Below, piece after piece: positions 5,074 through 55,894 of a DNA stretch of 64,000 bases. The translations under genes and the position numbers were made by a program. Source of the DNA: a virus; the IMG/VR virus record IMGVR_UViG_3300029235_000303; one strand, written 5' to 3'. Under the pieces are notes generated by a model that saw only the letters and a program-made list of their open reading frames with translations, was not told the DNA's origin and ran no database searches. Position 1 is the first letter of the stretch, and every line of letters starts with the position of its first letter.

Positions 5074-5289
5074 ATGAATGAATCATTATTAGCATTATTG
5101 AAAAAAGAGGATGGTCTTGTAAGAGATGTACGGTTAAATAAGGAAACTTATGAGATGTTGAGAGATAAAAATAAGCATCTTGCATCTGAATACATGGAAA
5201 AACTAGAAGAGTCTAAAGAGGTTCTTTTAGAGTGTCGAAAAGAAATCTCGCAGTATTTGGATTTTTTGGAGGTTTTAAAAGAGAGCTAA
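5074..5289 (+). CDS. hypothetical protein
   Basis: GGAGGAGAAATTAAA then ATG. Confidence 0.4.
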   Translation: MNESLLALLKKEDGLVRDVRLNKETYEMLRDKNKHLASEYMEKLEESKEVLLECRKEISQYLDFLEVLKES

Positions 5290-5324
5290 ATTCGCATTTC
5301 TTTAGAAGATTGGAGGAATCAAAA

Positions 5325-5570
5325 ATGAAAAAATCAAACATTAGAGTATTCGGAGAAATAAGTATTGCACATGTGGAAAAGAGAGGTTTATTTTCATATG
5401 CGGTTGTAAGGGACTTTGATAAAAAGGTACTTGCCAAATCTTTTTCATTTAGAAAATACATAAACGATACTATTCGTACAATGTATACAGGAGAATATTA
5501 CGCAACAGGTGATTACATATTGGTTGCTGACACTGTAAATGGAAATAAAGAAATTTATAGATGGCATTGA
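5325..5570 (+). CDS. hypothetical protein
   Basis: TTGGAGGAATCAAAA then ATG at 5325; the track ORF from 5232 is an extension. Confidence 0.4.
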   Translation: MKKSNIRVFGEISIAHVEKRGLFSYAVVRDFDKKVLAKSFSFRKYINDTIRTMYTGEYYATGDYILVADTVNGNKEIYRWH

Positions 5571-5603
5571 AACTAAGATTTCTTGGGAAAGGAGTGAAGA
5601 GAA

Positions 5604-5795
5604 ATGATGAATGGTGTTGATTTGATAAACAATCTAATTAATGAGCTTGAAAGAGCAAGGGATTTGTTGTATTCGCAGAATCCCGAAGAATCATCAGAAG
5701 AAGCTGTTTTGGTTAATGATATTAGAACAGATCTTGATAGATATTATGATATGGCAGATGAGATTGATGATGCAGTGAGATATATTGATGTTTAG
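5604..5795 (+). CDS. hypothetical acidic protein
   Basis: GATTTCTTGG motif, then AAAGGAGTG SD, then ATG. Confidence 0.4.
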   Translation: MMNGVDLINNLINELERARDLLYSQNPEESSEEAVLVNDIRTDLDRYYDMADEIDDAVRYIDV

Positions 5796-10045: not shown

Positions 10046-11021
10046 TATGACAATAGAAATATTAAAAACCAGAATAGATGAAATATTAAAGAAAATGTTG
10101 GGTGTAAATGAAGATGGTGGCATCGAAATTTATACTGACTACAGAGAAAGAGAACTTTCTGATAGTTTCTTAAAAGAGATATTTGAGCATGATAATCCAA
10201 GAGAGGCATTTAATGATGAATTAGCTGATTGGGCTATGGATTATGCAATGGAGTATGGAGAAGATGAGTTTGAAAAGGATATTCGTGAAGAAATGACGGA
10301 TGAAGAGGAAGAGTATTTTACAGATAATTTTAATGAGATATGGGAGTATGTAAGAGAAAATACATATTTTTATTACAACGCCGAGGATTTTAATAATGAA
10401 GTCAAAGTAAATATTATGGTGGATTGTGGTAATTGGAATTACGATTGCGTTTGCGATAATGTTCTGAATTGGTATGGAAATTCAGGAGATGGAAGTATTG
10501 ACAAAGAATCATCTATGCTATGGTTAGCAAAAACACAAGGTAAAGCAACTGCATTAAGAAAGGCATGTAAACAAGTACATAGGGATGATGGATATTATGT
10601 AGATAGAGATAAAAACAAAGACAAATTTATAGAAAGCTGCATACAGGAATTTGAAAATCTTCTATCACATATGGCAACTGTAACATTTCTTGTAAAAATG
10701 CCGTTATTTGATTTGTTTGATTTAATCGAATTACAGAATAAAGAATATGACGAAAAAGGAAAATATGATCCACGAAAGAATGAAAAATCAAAATCTTATA
10801 TAGTTCTTGGAAAAGAAACAATGTGTGGGTTGTATGATTCTTGGTCTGGTGGTGGTTCTGTATTAGAAGTAGAACTGGATAAGGATGTTAAACTTCCTAT
10901 TAAATATGCAATCTTTTGTGTAGAGGGATGTAAGATGCATGGATATGATATTGATGAAGTTTATGGACTGATTGATAGTTGTTGGAAAGAAACAGTAAAG
11001 GAAATAAAAGAGGTTGCATAA
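10046..11021 (+). CDS. hypothetical highly acidic protein
   Basis: GAGGTTGATTGAT then ATG at 10046. Confidence 0.45.
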
Positions 11022-26458: not shown

Positions 26459-26496
26459 AAAGGACGATACAGATTAATTTGTGTCGTCCTTATTCT
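26459..26496. terminator. bidirectional terminator hairpin between integrase and repressor
   Basis: AAGGACGATACA ... TGTGTCGTCCTT (11/12 bp) between convergent genes. Confidence 0.5.
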
Positions 26497-26743
26497 TACT
26501 TGCTTTATTAATTTCAGTTGCATAGGTTAGTAATCGCTTCATTTGATAGTCATCAGTATCTAATATTTCGAGTGGCGAACAATTAAGTTCTTTACAAATT
26601 GCCTCTAAAATATCAAATTTAATTGAAGTTGATTCACCTTTGTAGATTTTGTCAATCGTTGGATATGTTACGCCTATTTTTTTAGCCAGTTCGTAACGTG
26701 TCATATTTTTTTCTTTTAATTTGTTTTGAATAGATAATTTCAT
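26474..26743 (-). CDS. XRE-family HTH transcriptional repressor (cI/Cro-like)
   Basis: AGGAGGATTACATTC then ATG on the minus strand. ...MTRYELAKKIGVTYPTIDKIYKGE... helix-turn-helix. The 205-aa track ORF extends into the promoter and is rejected. Confidence 0.7.
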   Translation of the reverse strand: MKLSIQNKLKEKNMTRYELAKKIGVTYPTIDKIYKGESTSIKFDILEAICKELNCSPLEILDTDDYQMKRLLTYATEINKASKNKDDTN

Positions 26744-26819
26744 GAATGTAATCCTCCTATATACATAGAGTACCATATATAAAAGAAAAAATAAATATAA
26801 AAAATAATTGTAATAATAC

Positions 26820-26848
26820 TTGACAATATATATAGTGAAGTATATAAT
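26820..26848 (+). promoter_or_regulatory. consensus sigma-A-type promoter (TTGACA-17-TATAAT)
   Basis: TTGACA at 26820-26825, 17-nt spacer, TATAAT at 26843-26848, about 45 nt upstream of the mazF-like GTG. Confidence 0.6.
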
Positions 26849-26891
26849 ACAAAATATCAAAGGAACAAACAGAGAAAGGAGGGCTAACATA

Positions 26892-27242
26892 GTGGAAATT
26901 AAACGTGGTGAAATATATTTCGCTGATATAACTAAATATGATTCTAAAGGTTCAGAACAGAGTGGTAGAAGACCAGTACTGATATTGCAGAATGATATTG
27001 GCAATAAGTTTAGCCCTACCACTATAATTGCCATCATAACAACAAAATCTAAAAGGGAATTGCCAACACATGTAGAAATACATAAGAACAAGCTTAATGG
27101 GTTGAAATATGATTCTGTTGTGGCATTAGAGCAGATTTCGACAATTGATAAAGATAGGATTCAATTTAAAATTGGTGAATTATCTGCTGAAGATAATTTA
27201 AAGGTTATGGAAGCAATGAAAATTAGTTTGGCTATGATATAA
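26892..27242 (+). CDS. mazF: MazF/PemK/EndoA-family endoribonuclease toxin
   Basis: AGAAAGGAGGGCTAACATA then GTG. ...IKRGEIYFADI...GSEQSGRRPVLILQNDIGNKFSPTTIIAIIT...LPTHVEI... is nearly collinear with the B. subtilis EndoA (NdoA) motifs as recalled. No MazE-like gene upstream. Confidence 0.75.
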   Translation: MEIKRGEIYFADITKYDSKGSEQSGRRPVLILQNDIGNKFSPTTIIAIITTKSKRELPTHVEIHKNKLNGLKYDSVVALEQISTIDKDRIQFKIGELSAEDNLKVMEAMKISLAMI

Positions 27243-27260: not shown

Positions 27261-27557
27261 ATGAAGACAGAAACTTATGATTACGCAAGTATAGATGAAG
27301 CAATTGAAAGATTACAAAAGTTAAAAGCTGAAGGTAAAAATCCTAAAAATGTTGTTATATTAACAATGGATTTTGATAATAATACCTCTTCAAAGAAAAT
27401 CACAACTCCTGATGATGGATGTTTATTAGTAAGAAAATCAAAAACAATTATTGTGAACGAAGATGCTTATATCCCTCATATGCAGCTATTCAATACCGAA
27501 CAGGATATAGAGAATATTATTAAAAGAGGAATTATGCATGACATTCTGTTAAGATAA
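27261..27557 (+). CDS. hypothetical protein (possible cognate antitoxin or partner)
   Basis: GAGTGAGGAGAGAACATT then ATG, 18 nt after the toxin stop. Confidence 0.4.
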   Translation: MKTETYDYASIDEAIERLQKLKAEGKNPKNVVILTMDFDNNTSSKKITTPDDGCLLVRKSKTIIVNEDAYIPHMQLFNTEQDIENIIKRGIMHDILLR

Positions 27558-27585
27558 TTTATTCGAATATTTGTTTGGTTTTATA

Positions 27586-27614
27586 TTGACACAAACGTAT
27601 GTTTGGAGTAATAT
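27586..27614 (+). promoter_or_regulatory. sigma-A-like promoter (TTGACA-17-TAATAT)
   Basis: TTGACA at 27586-27591, 17-nt spacer, TAATAT (or TATAAT with a 20-nt spacer). Confidence 0.45.
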
Positions 27615-27636
27615 AATGGAAGAGGAAATAAAAAAT

Positions 27637-27671
27637 GCTTGACTAGAAAGTTGGCAGCTGGCTAGTCAAGC
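27637..27671. promoter_or_regulatory. 10-bp perfect inverted repeat (operator-like)
   Basis: GCTTGACTAG-N15-CTAGTCAAGC, centred on CAGCTG, just downstream of the promoter; no T tract follows. Confidence 0.4.
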
Positions 27672-27861
27672 AACATACAAAGTCTATTTCTTGGGGAAAT
27701 AATCAGTATGCATTCAAATTATACATAGTAATAGTTATAAAAGTCAATTGCATATCAGCAAAATTTCCAATTTTTTATCACAATTTAATAGCATTTTTAA
27801 TTTTTCTTTGGTATTTCCAAGGCTTATTAAAGTGCGCTAAAAATCAGAGAGGAGTGTTGTT

Positions 27862-28530
27862 TTGTTTATATTAACAGATGGAAAGAATTATGTTATGGAA
27901 AATCCTATGAAATTAGGTGAGTATATGATAACGACTTCAAGTTCTATGGCAAAGGAGTTTACCTACAAACAAGCGAGGTCGTTAGTGCAGAACAGTAGAA
28001 AGAAATATTCATGGATTAAGAAATATAATCTTATTGATGTGGATACAGGACAGAAATCTGATAAATCTCTTTATTATAGAGGAAATGCAAATGTTTATAC
28101 AGGAGATGAAGGTAATTTTGATTATGCTTTATTAGATAAGATTGAATCAGAAGCCAATTCTATCTTAGGGTTAGCAGGCTGGGACGACAATCAACTTATT
28201 ACATATAAAAATTTATTAAATACTGAACTATCAAAGTGCGATAGTGCAGAAAGTGATATTAATCATGCATTAGAAAAATATAAGAAAATACATAATGGCA
28301 AGAAGCCACAAGCTCATAAGGTAGCAAAGATAGGATATTTACTTGATGACATACGAGATAAACATAAACGAATAAAGCAGTGTATAAGGTATGTTCAGGT
28401 TATGCAAGATGCGATAGTCAAAGGATACAACATTGAGAAGATAAAATTGGAACTTAGTAAAGTCACTAGCGATGATTATAAAGGTAGAACGGAATATTGG
28501 AAAATGGCTAATGATATTTTGGAGGATTAA
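27862..28530 (+). CDS. hypothetical protein
   Basis: GAGAGGAGTGTTGTT then TTG; 222 aa. Confidence 0.4.
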   Translation: MFILTDGKNYVMENPMKLGEYMITTSSSMAKEFTYKQARSLVQNSRKKYSWIKKYNLIDVDTGQKSDKSLYYRGNANVYTGDEGNFDYALLDKIESEANSILGLAGWDDNQLITYKNLLNTELSKCDSAESDINHALEKYKKIHNGKKPQAHKVAKIGYLLDDIRDKHKRIKQCIRYVQVMQDAIVKGYNIEKIKLELSKVTSDDYKGRTEYWKMANDILED

Positions 28531-28532
28531 TT

Positions 28533-28724
28533 ATGGTGATATGTAAAAATTGTTTAATTGCTATGGTAGAGACTATGAGTTTTCAACCAGGAGAAAGAAA
28601 TCGACATGATAGATATTGTAAGTGTCCAAAATGTAAAAGAGAAACTAAACATATTAAAGTTATGAATTCTGAATTGTCTTTCGGTGAATATATGAATAAA
28701 GAATTGCGAAAGGCAGGTAGATGA
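28533..28724 (+). CDS. zinc-ribbon protein
   Basis: CKNC...CKCPKC; start overlaps the previous stop. Confidence 0.4.
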   Translation: MVICKNCLIAMVETMSFQPGERNRHDRYCKCPKCKRETKHIKVMNSELSFGEYMNKELRKAGR

Positions 28725-28725
28725 A

Positions 28726-30948
28726 ATGATTAATAAAGAGATGATGAGGATTATTAATAGTAATCCTGAGATGATGAAAATCATTAATGATTATTCAGAT
28801 GATGAAAACAAAAAATTAAAAAAATTATGTCACAAGATTTGGCGTGGGAAGATTGATATGTATGAATATGATGATTTATATGATGTCGCTATACAATGCT
28901 TAATGGAATCTGTGTATAGTTTTAATTCAGAGAAAGCAAATTTTGAAACATATTTAACAGGAAACATTAAAAGAAAATTTGATACATGGATGCGAGATAA
29001 TAGATTTCGACTAAAAAGAAATAATCTTGTCACGGATGAAAAAGGAAAAATAATTTATGACGAAAACGGCACTCCAACGATAATTAAAAATATCTCATTA
29101 GATGCACATACGGAAGATGATAATAACTTAATAGAGAAATTAGATTCAGGAATAAATATAGAAGATGAATGTAAATTTAATTTTGATTCTGATGAAAAAG
29201 TAGAAAAGTTTCTCAATTCATTATCTAAAATACAAAAAAATATCTTGCTTATGCGGATGGAGGATTTTCCTTCTGAGAAAATCAAAGAAGAATTAGGTAT
29301 TTCTAATGGAGAATATAACAGTGCAATGAAAGCAATAAAAATGAACAAAGGGCTTTCGATGTTCTCAATAAATAAAAATGATGGTGGTTATAATATGGAG
29401 GTAAATATGGAAGATAGAATTATTGAAATTAGCGAATCTGAAAATTACAGAATGGATAAATATAGTATGTACTCGTTGTTACAAGATAAAAAAAATGGGG
29501 ATATGAATTGCAACTATATCTTGCAGCGTGAACCGTTTCAATGGAGTAAGGAAGAAGCAAATAGATATTTCTGTCGTATTCTTAGCAATCTTCCAATTCC
29601 TGAAATTATACTTTGTGAACAGAAGAAAAAGGGATTAACTATATCACATTTGATTGATGGATTGCAGAGACTTTCATATGCAGAAGCTTTTAAGGAGAAT
29701 CGAATTAAGATTGGTTCGGCAGGAGCGGAAAGACACTTAATTCAGTATAGAGATTATGTTTTAGATGATAATGGAAATCGTGTGCCTGATGAAGAAGGAT
29801 TTCCTGAGTATGAAATGAAAGTTTTTGATGTTATTGGAAAATATTATAAAGATTTACCAGATGAGTTAAAGAAAAGATTTAATAATTTTAATATTAATGT
29901 AACAAAGTTTTTTGATTGTACTGACGAGCAGATTGCCGATCATATTCGTGATTACAATAATCATGCAAGTATGAATAAAGAACAGGGTGGATTACTCAAC
30001 GTATCAGCCGATATTGCTGGACATATTAAAAAGATTTCTCAAAAAAATTCATTTTTCAAAAACTGCGGTAAGTTTACAAATAATAATTCAATTAAAGGAA
30101 AACTTGAAAGAGTTGTTGTTGAATCAATTATGTTGTTATTCTTTCGTGAATCGTGGAGAGCGAGTTTAGATTCGATTTATAAATTCGTCAATGAAAATAC
30201 AACAGAACAGCAATTTTTAAAATTGAATTCACAGTTTAACAGATTGGAACTAGCATTAGGTGATAATAACAAAGATTTATCAAAGGAATTATTTACACCT
30301 ACAACAATGCCAATGTGGATTTCAGTGTTTGATAAATTTACTACATATAATATAGAAGATAGTCGTTTCGTAGATTTCTTAAATGCATATAACATAGAAC
30401 TCAAAGACAAAGAAATCAATGGTATATCAATGGCTGACTTTAAGGATCAACAGACCAAGAAAAAGACAACTATTGTAGGTAAGATTGATTTACTTATAAG
30501 GCTTATGAATGATTTTTTACATATTGATACAACTGAAACAGAGAATAATATAGAGTCTTCTGATAATAAGGTAACAAATGATAATGAATCTGAACAGAAT
30601 ACGGGTTGTGATGATGAAATATTATCATTTGTTAAAGAAAATGTTGCCGATGATATAGAGGATATTGATATAAAGGAATACCAGGATTTCGTGGATGTGT
30701 ATTTAGATATAAATAATCCATTATATATACAATGCAAGGCAGCATTAATGGCATTAACAGCATATGCTTACAGAACCGAAAAGGATGTTGAATTGGCGAC
30801 CTGGTTGGAAAATTATCAGAAGAATGCTACTGATAAGAATTATAGTCCATCACAAGATGTTAATTATAAGTATATTAAGATGGATTTTGATAATTACATA
30901 AACTTCTTAAATAATGTGAAGAAAGGAGGGATAATTAATGTTAATTAA
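28726..30948 (+). CDS. sigma-70-family-like N-terminal domain fused to DUF262/ParB-like (GmrSD N-terminal type) domain protein
   Basis: N-terminus ...FETYLTGNIKRKFDTWMRDNR... (sigma region 2 FxTY) and ...IQKNILLMRMEDFPSEKIKEELGISNGEYNSAMKAI (region 4 HTH). From about aa 250, ...ILQREPFQWSKEE...HLIDGLQRLS, the DUF262 DGQQR-type motif. Internal GGAGGTAAAT-ATG at 29410 is in frame. Confidence 0.5.
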   Translation: MINKEMMRIINSNPEMMKIINDYSDDENKKLKKLCHKIWRGKIDMYEYDDLYDVAIQCLMESVYSFNSEKANFETYLTGNIKRKFDTWMRDNRFRLKRNNLVTDEKGKIIYDENGTPTIIKNISLDAHTEDDNNLIEKLDSGINIEDECKFNFDSDEKVEKFLNSLSKIQKNILLMRMEDFPSEKIKEELGISNGEYNSAMKAIKMNKGLSMFSINKNDGGYNMEVNMEDRIIEISESENYRMDKYSMYSLLQDKKNGDMNCNYILQREPFQWSKEEANRYFCRILSNLPIPEIILCEQKKKGLTISHLIDGLQRLSYAEAFKENRIKIGSAGAERHLIQYRDYVLDDNGNRVPDEEGFPEYEMKVFDVIGKYYKDLPDELKKRFNNFNINVTKFFDCTDEQIADHIRDYNNHASMNKEQGGLLNVSADIAGHIKKISQKNSFFKNCGKFTNNNSIKGKLERVVVESIMLLFFRESWRASLDSIYKFVNENTTEQQFLKLNSQFNRLELALGDNNKDLSKELFTPTTMPMWISVFDKFTTYNIEDSRFVDFLNAYNIELKDKEINGISMADFKDQQTKKKTTIVGKIDLLIRLMNDFLHIDTTETENNIESSDNKVTNDNESEQNTGCDDEILSFVKENVADDIEDIDIKEYQDFVDVYLDINNPLYIQCKAALMALTAYAYRTEKDVELATWLENYQKNATDKNYSPSQDVNYKYIKMDFDNYINFLNNVKKGGIINVN

Positions 30949-31132
30949 AACATTGTTCAAAAGTATCGTATTGAAAAAGAAGATAAAAATCGAAGTAGTG
31001 GAAACCTTATCTGATATTTGTTTATACATACAATTAGACGGATTCAAAAAAGATAATGGGTATGGTCAATTTATGTATGCACATTATAACAATTTACAAG
31101 ATATTCTAAAAGAATATAAGGGAGAAAAATAA
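30938..31132 (+). CDS. hypothetical protein
   Basis: AAAGGAGGGATAATTA then ATG. Confidence 0.4.
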   Translation: MLIKTLFKSIVLKKKIKIEVVETLSDICLYIQLDGFKKDNGYGQFMYAHYNNLQDILKEYKGEK

Positions 31133-32487: not shown

Positions 32488-32565
32488 AATGGGCTGTGGT
32501 GAAGTGGTCAACACAACAGATTTTGATTCTGTCATTCGTGAGTTCAAGTCCCACCAGCCTAGTCT
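32488..32565 (+). other. tRNA-like element (imperfect; candidate tRNA-Gln UUG-like or att-site fragment)
   Basis: Perfect anticodon-arm-like hairpin ACAGA-TTTTGAT-TCTGT, canonical T-loop GTGAG-TTCAAGT-CCCAC, and acceptor-like pairing TGGGCTG/CAGCCTA, but no clean D-arm. A GC-rich island with atypical codons; 5' segment duplicated as GGGTGTGGTGAA / GGGCTGTGGTGAA. Confidence 0.3.
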
Positions 32566-46744: not shown

Positions 46745-46843
46745 GAAAGAAGCATTTCCTGTTAATTTTGTCTAAGAGCATTTCTACACACGGTTTTCCA
46801 AAATAAAAAAGAGAGAATAACTAAATATAAGGAGGTATAGAAC

Positions 46844-55490: not shown

Positions 55491-55731
55491 AGAATATAAA
55501 AACAGCAGAACAGATTGTACAAGTTTGGCGACCTAACAATCTGCTCTACAGAGAATAAAATATAGGATAAACTATATTTGTTCTATTGTAACAAATCTAT
55601 TTGGCTAATTCAAGCCAGTTTATCCTATAACAAGTATTCCAAAAGAGAAATCAATTGGATAGTGGGCGTGGGTTTCGTCTATTGAACTTAAACTTCAAGA
55701 ATACCAAGTAAATTACAAATACATATTTGAG
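55491..55731 (+). ncRNA. structured leader / candidate guide-scaffold (tracrRNA- or omega-RNA-like) upstream of repeat array
   Basis: No ORF. Nested stems: AGCAGAACAGATTG...CAATCTGCTCT; 13-bp TATAGGATAAACT / AGTTTATCCTATA enclosing ATTTGTT-ctattgt-AACAAAT and TGGC...GCCA; a GC-rich GGGCGTGGGTTTCG patch. AGTTTATCCTATAA is partly complementary to the repeat 3' end TTATAAGGTAATAAAC. Confidence 0.3.
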
Positions 55732-55894
55732 GTTTTAGAACCATGTTAATTTATAAGGTAATAAACCTATGCTATTGAACGATATTAAGTCTGATAGTTT
55801 TAGAACCATGTTAATTTATAAGGTAATAAACCAGGCTTGCATGGTTGGCTTAATATAAAAGGATTTTAGAATGATGTTAATTTAAGGAGAACTC
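55732..55894 (+). CRISPR. mini CRISPR-like array (2 perfect + 1 degenerate 36-nt repeats, spacers 29 and 28 nt)
   Basis: R1 55732-55767 and R2 55797-55832 are both GTTTTAGAACCATGTTAATTTATAAGGTAATAAACC. S1 55768-55796, S2 55833-55860. Degenerate R3 55861-55894 GGATTTTAGAATGATGTTAATTTAAGGAGAACTC runs into the ATG of the TnpB-like gene. Confidence 0.6.

Follow-up and report, generated by a model that had tools for sequence, protein, structure and literature searches.

Does an open reading frame of a gut virus in which a sigma-70-type domain runs without a break into a DUF262/ParB-like domain encode a genuine composite regulator, and does the ribosome-binding site in its interior give rise to a second, shorter protein? 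We examined this question in a viral stretch of 64,000 nucleotides (IMG/VR record IMGVR_UViG_3300029235_000303), the whole of which is referred to here as the window. The initial annotation, made from the sequence alone, had proposed both the fusion and the separately initiated short form, and had called for profile searches, structure prediction and a search for split or fused homologues. The reading frame is real and has the coordinates given there:

28726–30948, + strand: sigma::DUF262 open reading frame, 740 aa from an ATG start, about 86.7 kDa, pI 5.0

All the motifs quoted earlier (ANFETYLTGNIKRKFDTWMRDNR, ILQREPFQW and HLIDGLQRL) lie within its translation. We ran the three kinds of analysis named above, and they upheld the fusion architecture: the in-frame joining of a sigma-70-type and a DUF262/ParB-like part is borne out by profile and fold searches and by its recurrence across assemblies.

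The N-terminal half resembles a minimal sigma-70 factor

Profile and fold searches support the presence, in aa 1–217, of a minimal sigma-70 factor composed of sigma2 and sigma4, in agreement with the previous placement of sigma region 2 and a region-4 helix-turn-helix within the first ~230 aa. Its parts are as follows:

28765–29007, + strand: sigma domain 2 (aa 14–94), three long helices, with the FETY motif of region 2.3
29020–29190, + strand: acidic sigma2–sigma4 linker (aa 99–155), containing a beta-hairpin that bears an ExGxxxxDExG motif
29191–29364, + strand: sigma domain 4 (aa 156–213), helix-turn-helix

The predicted fold runs from the three-helix sigma2 through the linker to the helix-turn-helix of sigma4, and a sigma3 domain is absent between the two. 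In Pfam, Sigma70_r2 matched aa 31–93 (E 8.9e-5; 22.6 bits against a GA of 24) and Sigma70_r4_2 matched aa 157–201 (E 4.3e-3; 17.1 bits against 25.7). TIGR02937 (sigma70-ECF) aligned to aa 31–195 of the whole protein at E 6.9e-9, and with the N-terminal half (aa 1–227) it reached E 2.7e-10 and a score of 40.1 against a cut-off of 42.9. The same half matched phrog_351, annotated as 'RNA polymerase sigma factor' (E 2.1e-15); the whole fusion protein had no match in PHROGs, its halves being matched only when searched separately. The Pfam and TIGR scores of the window protein, for the sigma as well as the DUF262 part, fall slightly under the curated cut-offs. Many homologues carry precomputed PF04542 and PF03235 matches, a family profile matches solved sigma factors (E 8e-8), and the stand-alone sigma protein of one relative with separate genes (L093) passes TIGR02937 (45.9 against 42.9). 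We take the half to be a candidate alternative sigma factor that would bind RNA polymerase.

The region is, however, very divergent, and the scores under the curated thresholds would also suit a protein whose sigma-like half is a mere sequence-specific DNA-binding or sensor domain that never enters a holoenzyme, the whole acting as a DndB- or NsnA-like nucleotide-dependent repressor or anti-silencer. Reading of the sequence further showed that the Trp dyad of region 2.3, which has an established role in sigma-70, is missing, a second point in favour of a plain DNA binder. Precedents exist: N-terminal DNA-binding additions are common in NsnA (PMC12065111), and in a survey of ParB-fold proteins DndB, which itself has a ParB fold, is described as a repressor that depends on ATP (PMC12704722). 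We nevertheless consider this reading unlikely, as the sigma2 and sigma4 folds both occur, joined by a linker and in the expected order, and the keeping of an RNA polymerase-binding sigma2 would be hard to explain in a plain DNA binder. The sigma proteins of split loci, one of which is the protein passing TIGR02937, are moreover free-standing and have the typical size of small alternative sigma factors (198–218 aa).

The C-terminal part is a DUF262 module that lacks a nuclease

The remainder of the protein comprises three folded domains:

29446–29970, + strand: ParB-DUF262 NTPase-fold domain (aa 241–415), motifs QRxxxQW, DGxQR and N411
29971–30555, + strand: all-helical domain (aa 416–610), at the position of the ParBDB / GmrSD-M / SspE-M domain
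30607–30945, + strand: acidic helical C-terminal domain (aa 628–740), pI 4.2

The three motifs of the first domain, for which we followed the ParB-DUF262 definitions of PMC12065111, are nearly invariant in the family. Pfam GmrSD_N (PF03235) matched aa 265–406 (E 9.4e-8; 32.8 bits against a gathering score of 33.2), the NsnA model of PADLOC matched aa 229–403, which is the DUF262 part only (E 3.1e-9), and this half also matched phrog_2598, a family of unknown function. PF02195 (ParBc) gave no match, and the protein has the motif DGLQR instead of the GxxR box of ParB-CTPases. The all-helical domain, a putative equivalent of ParBDB (a concept taken from PMC12065111), GmrSD-M and SspE-M, contains no conserved His/Asp catalytic residues, and a disordered acidic linker (aa 611–627) separates it from the C-terminal domain. 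Between lineages, the sigma part and the C-terminal domain exchange independently, so that the tail, at least, is not co-evolving with the sigma part.

The statement in the initial annotation that no HNH/DUF1524 partner is present held for the protein and for the three flanking genes tested. Pfam and NCBIfam gave no DUF1524 or HNH match in the protein, no His, Asp or Asn occurs among the nearly invariant columns after aa 416, and the family profile matched no nuclease among solved structures. Fold searches matched BrxU and SspE only at the level of the DUF262 domain (TM <0.2). Because neither a nuclease domain nor catalytic residues were found, the fusion protein is not a GmrSD enzyme. The DUF262 part and the tail are acidic (pI 4.9 and 4.2), a property that does not point to non-specific DNA binding and would be equally compatible with an inhibitory or mimic role. 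We infer that the module is a nucleotide-gated, DNA-sensing partner of the sigma factor.

The gene lies in a compact, probably early operon

The genes and the candidate promoter around the fusion gene are as follows:

27586–27614, + strand: candidate host sigma-A-type promoter TTGACA-17-TAATAT (10/12 matches, by consensus match only)
27862–28530, + strand: gene at the head of the operon, 222 aa, of no recognisable family
28533–28724, + strand: zinc-ribbon gene, 63 aa, CxxC...CxxC
30938–31132, + strand: downstream gene, 64 aa, with its own GGAGG at 30925, overlapping the end of the fusion reading frame by 11 nt

The candidate promoter sits in a 304-nt gap (27558–27861) upstream of the operon, and the number of sigma-A-type matches across the region is not above chance. 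The 222-aa gene belongs to no Pfam, PHROG or PADLOC family; relatives carry a gene of 189–243 aa at the equivalent position, and the similarity to the positional counterpart in MT835469 was not significant (E 0.068). The zinc-ribbon gene, which had weak matches in Pfam and PHROG searches, is preceded by its own GGAGG at 28521 and is ~95% conserved in a split-gene relative (L010). Its TGA ends 1 nt upstream of the ATG of the fusion gene (TGAaATG), an arrangement that suggests translational coupling between the two. No family was found for the 64-aa downstream gene by Pfam, PHROG or PADLOC. The candidate sigma-A-like promoter and the tightly packed or overlapping genes together point to an early operon, with whose genes the fusion gene is co-oriented.

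An integrase (tyrosine recombinase), Cro/C1-type HTH genes and a PemK/MazF toxin adjoin the fusion gene, and accessory genes of the conflict type abound in the window (RelE, PemK, DNA methyltransferases, Nmad4 and TnpB), with one C5 and three N6/N4 DNA methyltransferases among them. Apart from the fusion protein, searches of the window detected no sigma factor and no RNA polymerase. Such surroundings would suit a prophage-borne sensor for defence or superinfection exclusion, in which DUF262 detects invading (modified) DNA, as in GmrSD, SspE and Menshen NsnA, and the sigma domain is the output that switches on a toxin or another response gene or sequesters RNA polymerase. The PADLOC match to NsnA and the fold matches to BrxU and SspE favour this role, as does the frequency of extra N-terminal sensor domains on NsnA proteins (PMC12065111). 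The companions of such a system are, however, missing: neither an NsnB ATPase, an NsnC effector nor an HNH or other nuclease was found within 10 kb on either side, and across seven loci the same distance contained no AAA_15, DUF3696 or effector domains; the neighbouring genes searched with PADLOC had no match. The position and neighbours of the module are also unchanged in lineages down to 27% identity, which resembles a core regulatory gene and not a swappable cassette, and the tight, co-oriented packing with early genes likewise disagrees with a cassette. We therefore regard a defence sensor as improbable.

The junction retains the probable translation start of a formerly separate gene

Among clusters built at 50% identity, 721 matched the fusion protein, and fused homologues were found down to 26% identity. 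Among the best 145 cluster representatives, 67 were fused, 57 were DUF262-only and 4 were sigma-only. All five DUF262-only genes that we examined lie 1–58 nt downstream of a sigma-70-family gene (198–218 aa), four of them within 26 nt, and 4/5 of these split loci share the HTH/PemK context. The halves are separate, adjacent genes in L009, L011, L090, L092 and L093, in the order sigma gene, stop, Shine-Dalgarno sequence (SD), ATG and DUF262 gene; in L009 and L011 the junction reads stop-AGGAGG-9 nt-ATG. The pairing is not universal for the DUF262 subfamily, since proteins with DUF262 and a helical domain also occur without a sigma gene beside them, as does the homologue of Bacillus phage PJN02.

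At the corresponding place, the fusion gene contains the following features:

29377–29406, + strand: disordered inter-domain linker (aa 218–227, pLDDT <50), corresponding to the intergenic spacer of split-gene relatives
29397–29401, + strand: internal Shine-Dalgarno sequence GGAGG, read atG-GAG-Gta, with a 5-nt spacer
29407–30948, + strand: predicted short isoform from Met228, 513 aa, ~60 kDa, pI 4.9

The GGAGG with an in-frame ATG reported earlier thus exists, with two corrections: the spacer is 5 nt and not 7, and the ATG is at 29407–29409 (Met228) and not at 29410. In the AF2 model (pLDDT 90–91, with the junction at aa 218–228 disordered), the site falls at the end of the only disordered inter-domain linker. 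The predicted isoform would contain the DUF262, helical and C-terminal domains without sigma, and stand-alone homologues (470–550 aa) begin at the position equivalent to Met228.

The + strand of the window contains 64 copies of GGAGG and the - strand one. Some 20 of the + strand copies are not ahead of gene starts, and only the internal one precedes an in-frame ATG deep inside a reading frame, with 237 open codons. An SD-like purine core (GGAG/GAGG) and an in-frame ATG are kept in 30/30 distinct junctions at 27–100% identity. A strict 5-mer scan found a strong SD with an in-frame ATG in all 25 distinct fused reading frames, 32–41 codons upstream of the LQR motif, and only two further such sites elsewhere in these frames (~730 codons each); nine additional fused frames from bacterial genomes carry the same internal site. 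The Glu codon is GAG in every one of the 30 junctions, against 25% GAG usage in the reading frames, and the codon before it ends in G in 29/30 (background 18%) while encoding V, M, E, L, T, K or R. Up to 25 nt from the internal ATG, the RNA is unstructured in 13/13 lineages, its minimum free energy being 0 to -2.2 kcal/mol where the gene means are -4.1 to -5.7; the lineages counted throughout are not phylogenetically independent and represent only ~8 deep clades. The site thus combines a conserved SD, an in-frame start inside the reading frame and accessible RNA.

Would the cell nonetheless make the 740-aa fusion alone, the internal GGAGG-ATG being an unused relic of the fusion event or kept for the sake of a conserved Glu and Met? 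Chance would allow for one internal SD-ATG per genome, and Glu225 and Met228 are indeed conserved residues. A lone site of this kind could thus be a chance product in any one genome, but chance does not account for its retention in all the lineages examined. Nucleotide conservation goes further than the amino acids demand, as the invariant GAG and the third-position G in codons for seven different residues illustrate, and the residues concerned lie in a disordered linker, where constraint at the protein level should be small. With the unfailing presence of the strong SD in the 25 frames, the open local RNA and the retention of the site in lineages diverged to 27% identity, we judge the fusion-only reading quite unlikely. 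The short isoform suggested in the initial annotation has gained much support from this nucleotide-level conservation and from the coincidence of the site with the downstream gene start in split relatives. The comparative evidence (conserved site and split loci) is strong and indicates that the linker looks like a translated intergenic spacer and that two products, of ~87 and 60 kDa, are likely.

The family occurs in viral contigs and in Lachnospiraceae genomes

Homologous loci were found in IMG/VR viral contigs of 90–215 kb and in Lachnospiraceae genomes, including that of the isolate Faecalicatena contorta NLAE-zl-C134. A pattern scan of bacterial genomes, derived from the alignment, recovered 12 Lachnospiraceae loci; a scan of bacterial genomes with window-specific peptides found no locus. 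In an isolate genome, at least one homologue is embedded in a contig of 482 kb, consistent with an integrated prophage.

This location argues against a ParB analogue for plasmid-prophage maintenance, in which the sigma4 HTH would bind a centromere and the ParB fold would serve as the nucleotide switch. The ParB-fold domain is present, and the tyrosine recombinase and toxin neighbours do resemble a plasmid maintenance region; but PF02195 is not matched, DGLQR is not a GxxR box, the module is acidic and no ParA-type ATPase was called within 10 kb, which makes this role very unlikely. A sequencing or assembly error joining two genes, with which the split versions in relatives would agree, has virtually no probability and is rejected, because the identical 740-aa protein comes from many independent assemblies (274 blocks of public assemblies) and the frame is open through the sigma–DUF262 junction in at least 34 distinct fused sequences.

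A strand-specific motif marks candidate target promoters

The initial annotation had suggested a sigma factor for conserved intergenic motifs or a DNA-modification sensor. A strongly enriched motif is AGAGAATAW, with 33 copies in the window, all on the + strand, against 6.2 expected; none of 100 shuffles reached 33.

38432–59811, + strand: cluster of 26 of the window's 33 AGAGAATAW copies, candidate phage-specific promoters

Most clustered copies are located at gene ends or in spacers, 21–100 nt before the next start, and the genes whose starts they precede include methyltransferase genes. No -35-like partner element was seen with the motif. Enrichment of AGAGAATAW is 6–15-fold in loci with a protein of 52% or higher identity to that of the window, and the motif is near chance level in most loci at 27–35% identity. 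The copies may be targets of the sigma factor in the fusion, and the fading of the motif in more distant loci is accounted for just as well if any other factor has diverged in the ordinary phylogenetic way. Both suggested functions are compatible with the motif enrichment and the methyltransferase genes.

Comparison with known systems

A literature search on sigma–DUF262 fusions found no description of a phage sigma::DUF262 family. The earlier view that the combination is unusual needs to be tempered, as a 2025 survey (Kaljevic et al., PNAS; PMC12704722) already includes bacterial ParB-CTPase (PF02195)::Sigma70 fusions, one of which binds ATP; the DUF262 phage version would be a further variety of such a fusion. 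Both kinds unite sigma-70 domains and a nucleotide-binding domain of ParB/Srx fold in a single polypeptide, but the bacterial proteins have the canonical ParB box GEHRVRA, whereas the phage protein belongs to the DUF262 branch (DGLQR), continues into a helical domain and an acidic tail, is known in fused and split forms and carries a conserved internal start.

BrxU (PDB 7P9K) and the other type IV restriction enzymes of the GmrSD family, as well as SspE (PDB 6JIV), share the N-terminal DUF262 with QR...W and DGxQR motifs. Unlike GmrSD enzymes and SspE, the phage protein lacks DUF1524/HNH and a conserved catalytic His/Asp, and has a sigma factor at its N-terminus instead. Menshen NsnA has a similar layout, with an optional N-terminal nucleic-acid-related domain, DUF262 and a helical domain, and its reported N-terminal domains include folds like sigma region 1.1 (PMC12065111). 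They are not sigma2 plus sigma4, however, and in sister phages the N-terminal part is an independent gene.

ParB-fold transcription regulators of mobile elements include BisD of ICEclc (PMC12409273), which has an extra activator domain and acts on 11 promoters over ~50 kb, KorB of RK2 (PMC11790492), HerB/YfjB of F (PMC13370423) and VirB. As in BisD, KorB and HerB, a ParB-fold NTP-binding protein of a mobile element appears to be coupled to transcription control; those proteins are ParB-CTPase clamps with their own HTH and parS-like loading sites that act on the host sigma holoenzyme, whereas here the partner is itself a sigma factor and the fold is of the DUF262 branch. The likeness to T4 late transcription, which uses the minimal sigma gp55, gp33 and the sliding clamp gp45 (PMC7892883), would be functional only: gp45 is a replication clamp that is not fused to gp55, and gp55 lacks the sigma4 that the phage fusion has.

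ECF-type factors with fused C-terminal regulatory extensions (ECF41/42-type groups) and sigma/anti-sigma operons are well known; the fused form parallels the former, a factor of sigma2 and sigma4 only with a large C-terminal extension, and the split form a sigma gene followed by a co-transcribed partner. To our knowledge, ECF extensions are SnoaL-like, TPR or zinc-finger domains and not a ParB-DUF262 NTPase, and we know of no conserved internal start that yields such an extension alone. In T7 gene 4A/4B and lambda C/Nu3, an in-frame internal SD and AUG give a full-length and an N-terminally truncated protein. The predicted products of the phage fusion would similarly share an oligomerising C-terminal part, except that here a gene fusion, of which split relatives still exist, would account for the predicted two-product state.

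A proposed mechanism and its implications

We propose that the fusion gene was formerly two adjacent genes, the upstream one for a minimal alternative sigma factor (sigma2 plus sigma4) and the downstream one for a nuclease-less NsnA/GmrSD/SspE-type module consisting of a ParB-DUF262 NTPase, a helical domain and a variable acidic tail. In the lineage of the window, the sigma stop would have been lost while the SD and ATG of the downstream gene were retained. Because the stop codon is gone, the old spacer would be translated as a flexible linker, and because its SD and ATG are kept, the locus should give two proteins: the sigma::DUF262 fusion, started through translational coupling to the zinc-ribbon gene, and, from Met228, the DUF262 module alone. 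Dimers are the working form of DUF262 proteins such as BrxU and SspE; if dimerisation holds here, the two products could pair into dimers with two, one or no sigma domains. The sigma part would redirect host RNA polymerase to phage-specific promoters, for which the AGAGAATAW motifs are candidates, and the DUF262 module, gated by nucleotide and sensing DNA, would serve as its regulatory or targeting subunit, in cis when fused and in trans when free. Control could be activation by tethering to phage DNA, or inhibition. We give this account as a whole an even chance of being correct, jointly with the view that the carrier is a large temperate phage of gut Lachnospiraceae and the fusion gene one of its early genes.

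A more specific version is tentative and rather unlikely in its full form. In it, the nucleotide-gated DUF262/helical module would read the state of the DNA (the phage's own methylation or a loading site) and physically guide sigma and RNA polymerase to phage DNA, replacing or supplementing -35 recognition, and the dual starts would tune the switch by setting how much fused sensor there is relative to free sensor. Clamp-activated T4 late transcription, or RNA-guided sigma recruitment, would have a protein-based counterpart in such a system.

The locus is a clean natural case of a fusion that retains the ribosome-binding site of the downstream gene, with fused and split states coexisting in sister genomes, and it is useful for the study of fusion evolution and for annotation pipelines, which call one product here. 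Since the carrier Faecalicatena contorta NLAE-zl-C134 is an isolate, the question is testable at the bench. Control of sigma factors normally falls to anti-sigma proteins or proteolysis. If the proposed mechanism is true, a sigma factor hard-wired to a ParB/DUF262 nucleotide switch, covalently or through an adjacent gene, would couple the choice of promoter to an NTPase that senses DNA or nucleotides, a link that has not been described before. The family comprises hundreds of clusters and is abundant among phages of human-gut Lachnospiraceae, and its members would then show that the DUF262 fold, whose other known settings are modification-dependent restriction and defence sensors (GmrSD, SspE and Menshen), has been re-used by phages for gene regulation.

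Domain composition and predicted structure of the sigma::DUF262 protein

The initial annotation proposed that the gene at 28726-30948 (+ strand) joins a sigma-70-like domain in frame to a DUF262/ParB-like domain. Translation bore out the 740-aa ORF, including the quoted motifs, and both domains were recovered by profile searches. In Pfam, Sigma70_r2 matched aa 31-93 (E 8.9e-5), Sigma70_r4_2 aa 157-201 (E 4.3e-3) and GmrSD_N/DUF262 aa 265-406 (E 9.4e-8; 32.8 bits, gathering score 33.2), and the NCBIfam model TIGR02937 (sigma70-ECF superfamily) spanned aa 31-195, with an E-value of 6.9e-9 for the whole protein and 2.7e-10 for the N-terminal half alone. Every profile score of the window protein lay slightly below its curated threshold, with E-values that were significant all the same, and precomputed PF04542 and PF03235 matches were present on many homologues. 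The whole protein had no match in PHROGs; searched separately, the sigma half (aa 1-227) matched phrog_351 'RNA polymerase sigma factor' (E 2.1e-15) and the DUF262 half (aa 228-740) matched phrog_2598, of unknown function (E 5.4e-12). The family profile matched the solved sigma factors SigA, SigH, SigF and FliA (E 8e-8 to 4e-6) across regions 2 and 4, skipping region 3, and a profile of the part from DUF262 to the C-terminus found no solved relative by sequence. The near-invariant residues of the family were those of the DUF262 motifs (Q267, R268, E298, D311, G312, R315 and N411); in the helical half, near-invariant positions were hydrophobic only. The window protein carried no His-Me or other nuclease signature, and its identity as a GmrSD enzyme was therefore rejected.

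An AlphaFold2 model of the full protein, built on 146 family members (mean pLDDT 90.1), comprised the following parts:

aa 14-94, sigma2, three long helices
aa 99-155, acidic linker with a beta-hairpin
aa 156-213, sigma4 domain, four helices
aa 218-228, disordered stretch (pLDDT <50)
aa 241-415, alpha/beta domain
aa 416-610, all-helical domain
aa 612-626, second disordered linker, acidic
aa 628-735, helical C-terminal domain

In Foldseek, the full-length model matched BrxU at probability 0.99, followed by ParB and Noc. The short isoform, the 513-aa product of about 60 kDa predicted from an internal start at Met228, was modelled alone with a pLDDT of 91.0; its only matches were BrxU (probability 0.97), ParB/Noc and SspE, at low global TM scores. 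With a pI of 4.9 and a net charge of about -21, this isoform is acidic, its C-terminal domain even more so (pI 4.2). An ExGxxxxDExG beta-hairpin motif occurs twice, at 29035-29076 (aa 104-117) in the sigma2-sigma4 linker and at 29764-29802 (aa 347-359) in an insertion of the DUF262 domain. Both copies are conserved across the family and could represent an internal repeat or a common contact surface.

A conserved putative internal start

An internal ribosome-binding site just before the DUF262 part had also been proposed. The site exists, slightly displaced from the position first given: GGAGG lies at 29397-29401, and 5 nt further on comes an in-frame ATG (29407-29409) encoding Met228. We scanned 25 distinct junctions (the stretch between the sigma and DUF262 parts) from phage contigs and 9 more from bacterial genomes, these lineages not being independent but representing roughly eight deep clades. 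In every fused ORF examined, a strong SD (GGAGG, AGGAGG, AAGGAGG or AGGAG) preceded an in-frame ATG by 4-11 nt, and the LQR motif followed 32-41 codons after this ATG. Elsewhere in the 25 phage ORFs, each of about 730 codons, in-frame SD-ATG combinations numbered only two.

The junctions followed the nucleotide pattern NNG-GAG-GNN. The Glu codon was GAG in 30/30 junctions, as against 25% of Glu codons in these genes, and the preceding codon, encoding Val, Met, Glu, Leu, Thr, Lys or Arg, ended in G in 29/30 (background 18%). Judged by these codon patterns, conservation of the site acts at the nucleotide level. The 50 nt centred on the internal ATG were nearly unstructured in 13/13 lineages, with MFE values of 0 to -2.2 kcal/mol compared with gene means of -4.1 to -5.7, ranking in the least structured 1-17% of gene windows. 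GGAGG itself occurred 64 times on the + strand of the window and once on the - strand, about two thirds of the copies directly preceding gene starts, and thus serves almost exclusively as a ribosome-binding site here. That the site is kept down to 27% protein identity, within a disordered linker, argues for a function, and an internal SD surviving as an unused relic appears very unlikely.

The start at 28726 has a weak SD and lies 1 nt past the stop of the preceding zinc-ribbon gene (TGAaATG), an arrangement common to the 68%-identity clade. Given this weak SD and close spacing, synthesis of the long form (the whole fusion, about 87 kDa) probably depends on translational coupling, with the short form probably initiated at a consensus site of its own.

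Fused and split states of a mosaic gene

A search for split or fused homologues, suggested in the initial annotation, returned both states. Among the 145 best cluster representatives, 67 contained sigma, DUF262 and C-terminal domain, 57 had their N-terminus only a few residues ahead of the DUF262 domain, and 4 were sigma-only. We examined five DUF262-only genes (loci L009, L011, L090, L092 and L093), and at 5/5 a sigma-70-family gene (198-218 aa) ended 1-58 nt upstream, the spacing being at most 26 nt in four. TIGR02937 matched these split-locus sigma genes with E-values of 4e-12 to 6e-3, one of them above the cut-off. The conserved neighbourhood was present at four of the five split loci, namely L009, L090, L093 and, via its neighbour L010, the same phage type; L011 and L092 were too short to judge. 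In L009 the split junction has the sequence TAA-tt-AGGAGG-9 nt-ATG, in L011 stop...GGTGGAGG-5 nt-ATG, and the disordered linker of the fused protein therefore appears to be a translated intergenic spacer. As read from these loci, sigma and DUF262 constitute a conserved module encoded by either one gene or two. In L010 (883-2323), a split-gene relative, the DUF262 gene was itself divided among three ORFs (133, 308 and 76 aa) that flank stretches of unknown residues; poor assembly quality, not biology, is the probable cause.

Relative to proteins 68-92% identical to it, the window protein shared 81-100% identity in the DUF262 and helical core; identity was 43-100% in the sigma part and 39-89% in the C-terminal domain, and these two varied independently of each other. 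These alignments indicate that the parts of the gene evolve as a mosaic. Three homologous proteins, P0006, P0017 and P0009, were compared with the window protein for intragenic mosaic exchange: P0006 was identical in the sigma and core parts and 46% identical in the C-terminal domain, and P0017 was 43% identical in the sigma part and 89% in the C-terminal domain. The identities in P0006 and P0017 therefore place putative recombination breakpoints at the two disordered linkers.

Carriers and genomic context

The assembly collection listed the identical protein in 274 blocks, the contigs reaching several hundred kb in length. Close relatives of 720-760 aa numbered more than 886, and an exhaustive search of 50%-identity representatives matched 721 clusters. 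Seventy-seven loci came from IMG/VR viral contigs of about 90-215 kb. The 12 bacterial-genome loci were all in Lachnospiraceae or close relatives, including Lachnospira, Roseburia, Hungatella and Ruminococcus; the isolate Faecalicatena contorta NLAE-zl-C134 carries the gene within a 482-kb contig. One fused homologue (26% identity) was present in MT835469, a 176-kb GenBank phage contig from human faeces. This contig also holds, ahead of the module at 5139-5669, an additional small gene of DUF262-like type (DFQRGHVW...DGLQRL) and, just downstream of the sigma::DUF262 gene, a gene at 10268-10852 that is ParB-N-like by eye only; ParB-fold genes may have multiplied in these phages.

The conserved context begins with a tyrosine recombinase, Cro/C1-type HTH gene(s), a PemK/MazF toxin and a small ORF, and ends with a gene of about 190-240 aa without known function, a zinc-ribbon gene of about 60 aa and the sigma::DUF262 gene. 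The G+C content of 31% and the GGAGG ribosome-binding sites mark the element as a large temperate phage of gut Clostridia. The corresponding features of the window, with others of note, are:

243-578, RelE-type toxin gene
26474-27242, divergent pair with a common spacer: Cro/C1-type HTH gene (- strand) and PemK/MazF toxin gene (+ strand)
26820-26848, perfect TTGACA-17-TATAAT in that spacer, before the PemK gene
27261-27557, 98-aa gene of no family, after the toxin
27586-27614, TTGACA-17-TAATAT match, in the 304-nt gap ahead of a tightly packed run
27862-28530, first gene of the run, 222 aa, unknown
28533-28724, second, zinc-ribbon gene, 63 aa (CxxC...CxxC), probably coupled in translation to the next
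28726-30948, third, sigma::DUF262 gene
30938-31132, fourth
32490-32562, tRNA-Gln (anticodon TTG), amid small ORFs downstream of a Band_7/SPFH gene
55491-57193, region of a TnpB-type gene (432 aa; OrfB_IS605 and Cas12f1-like TNB domain)

The 404-nt spacer ahead of the TnpB-type gene holds two near-identical copies of a repeat of about 35 nt (ttttagaaccatgttaatttataaggtaataaacc) and a third, shorter and diverged. Since similar-sized genes hold the positions of the zinc-ribbon and 222-aa genes in distant relatives, both may be components of the sigma::DUF262 system, with a role such as that of an anti-sigma or RNA-polymerase-binding factor.

Two candidate promoter classes

The upstream TTGACA-17-TAATAT/TATAAT matches suggest that the packed run is expressed early by the host holoenzyme. 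A second motif, AGAGAATAW, had 33 copies in the window, every one on the + strand, compared with an expectation of 6.2 for both strands together, and 0/100 shuffles reached this count. Twenty-six copies lay between 38.4 and 59.8 kb (38432-59811, + strand), examples being those at 46812, 48101, 49144, 58376 and 58946 (+). Most were located in spacers or at the ends of genes, with the next start codon 21-100 nt downstream. The motif is unlike TATAAT and has no evident -35-like partner nearby; it has the appearance of a phage-specific promoter that consists of one -10-like element.

Copies precede each of four DNA methyltransferase genes clustered within 7 kb, about 200 nt upstream in the case of the C5 gene:

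38637-39623, 42418-43293, 43617-44348 and 44902-45738, one C5 (assigned by a precomputed Pfam match on the same gene in homologous locus L006), one N6/N4 and two D12/Dam-type

Together with the Nmad4, DUF488-N3a, radical-SAM and DUF6551 genes of the window, they give this genome arm the appearance of a region for anti-restriction and DNA modification.

Within the window we detected neither a further sigma factor nor an RNA polymerase. AGAGAATAW was enriched 6-15 times in loci whose protein was at least 52% identical to that of the window and was near chance level in most 27-35%-identity loci. The pattern fits a sigma half that would drive a second temporal class of promoters, a circumstantial link because divergence erodes the motif whichever factor reads it.

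Discussion

The best-supported reading of these comparisons is that the locus encodes a putative phage alternative sigma factor and a nuclease-less DUF262 NTPase partner, which would be made both fused and free. A prophage defence sensor with sigma as its output is unlikely, and we give equally little credence to a regulator that binds DNA through a sigma-like half and makes no contact with RNA polymerase. A ParB-like partition protein or an artefact is poorly supported or excluded.

Bacterial Sigma70-domain fusions, one of which binds ATP, are listed in a 2025 survey devoted to the ParB-CTPase fold (PMC12704722), so the general ParB::Sigma70 idea is already published, without a mechanism. The literature searched contained no account of this phage family of the DUF262 branch, its fused/split dimorphism or its conserved internal start. 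Because an isolate carries a homologue, the finding is open to bench test.

In GmrSD, SspE and Menshen NsnA, DUF262 domains act as NTP-switched DNA sensors (PMC12065111), and ParB-fold proteins of mobile elements control transcription, as in BisD (PMC12409273), KorB (PMC11790492) and HerB (PMC13370423). By analogy with these, we propose that the DUF262 partner of the phage sigma factor would act as its nucleotide-gated regulatory or targeting subunit. It may activate the sigma factor by tethering it to phage DNA, or inhibit it like an anti-sigma factor, as its acidity possibly hints.
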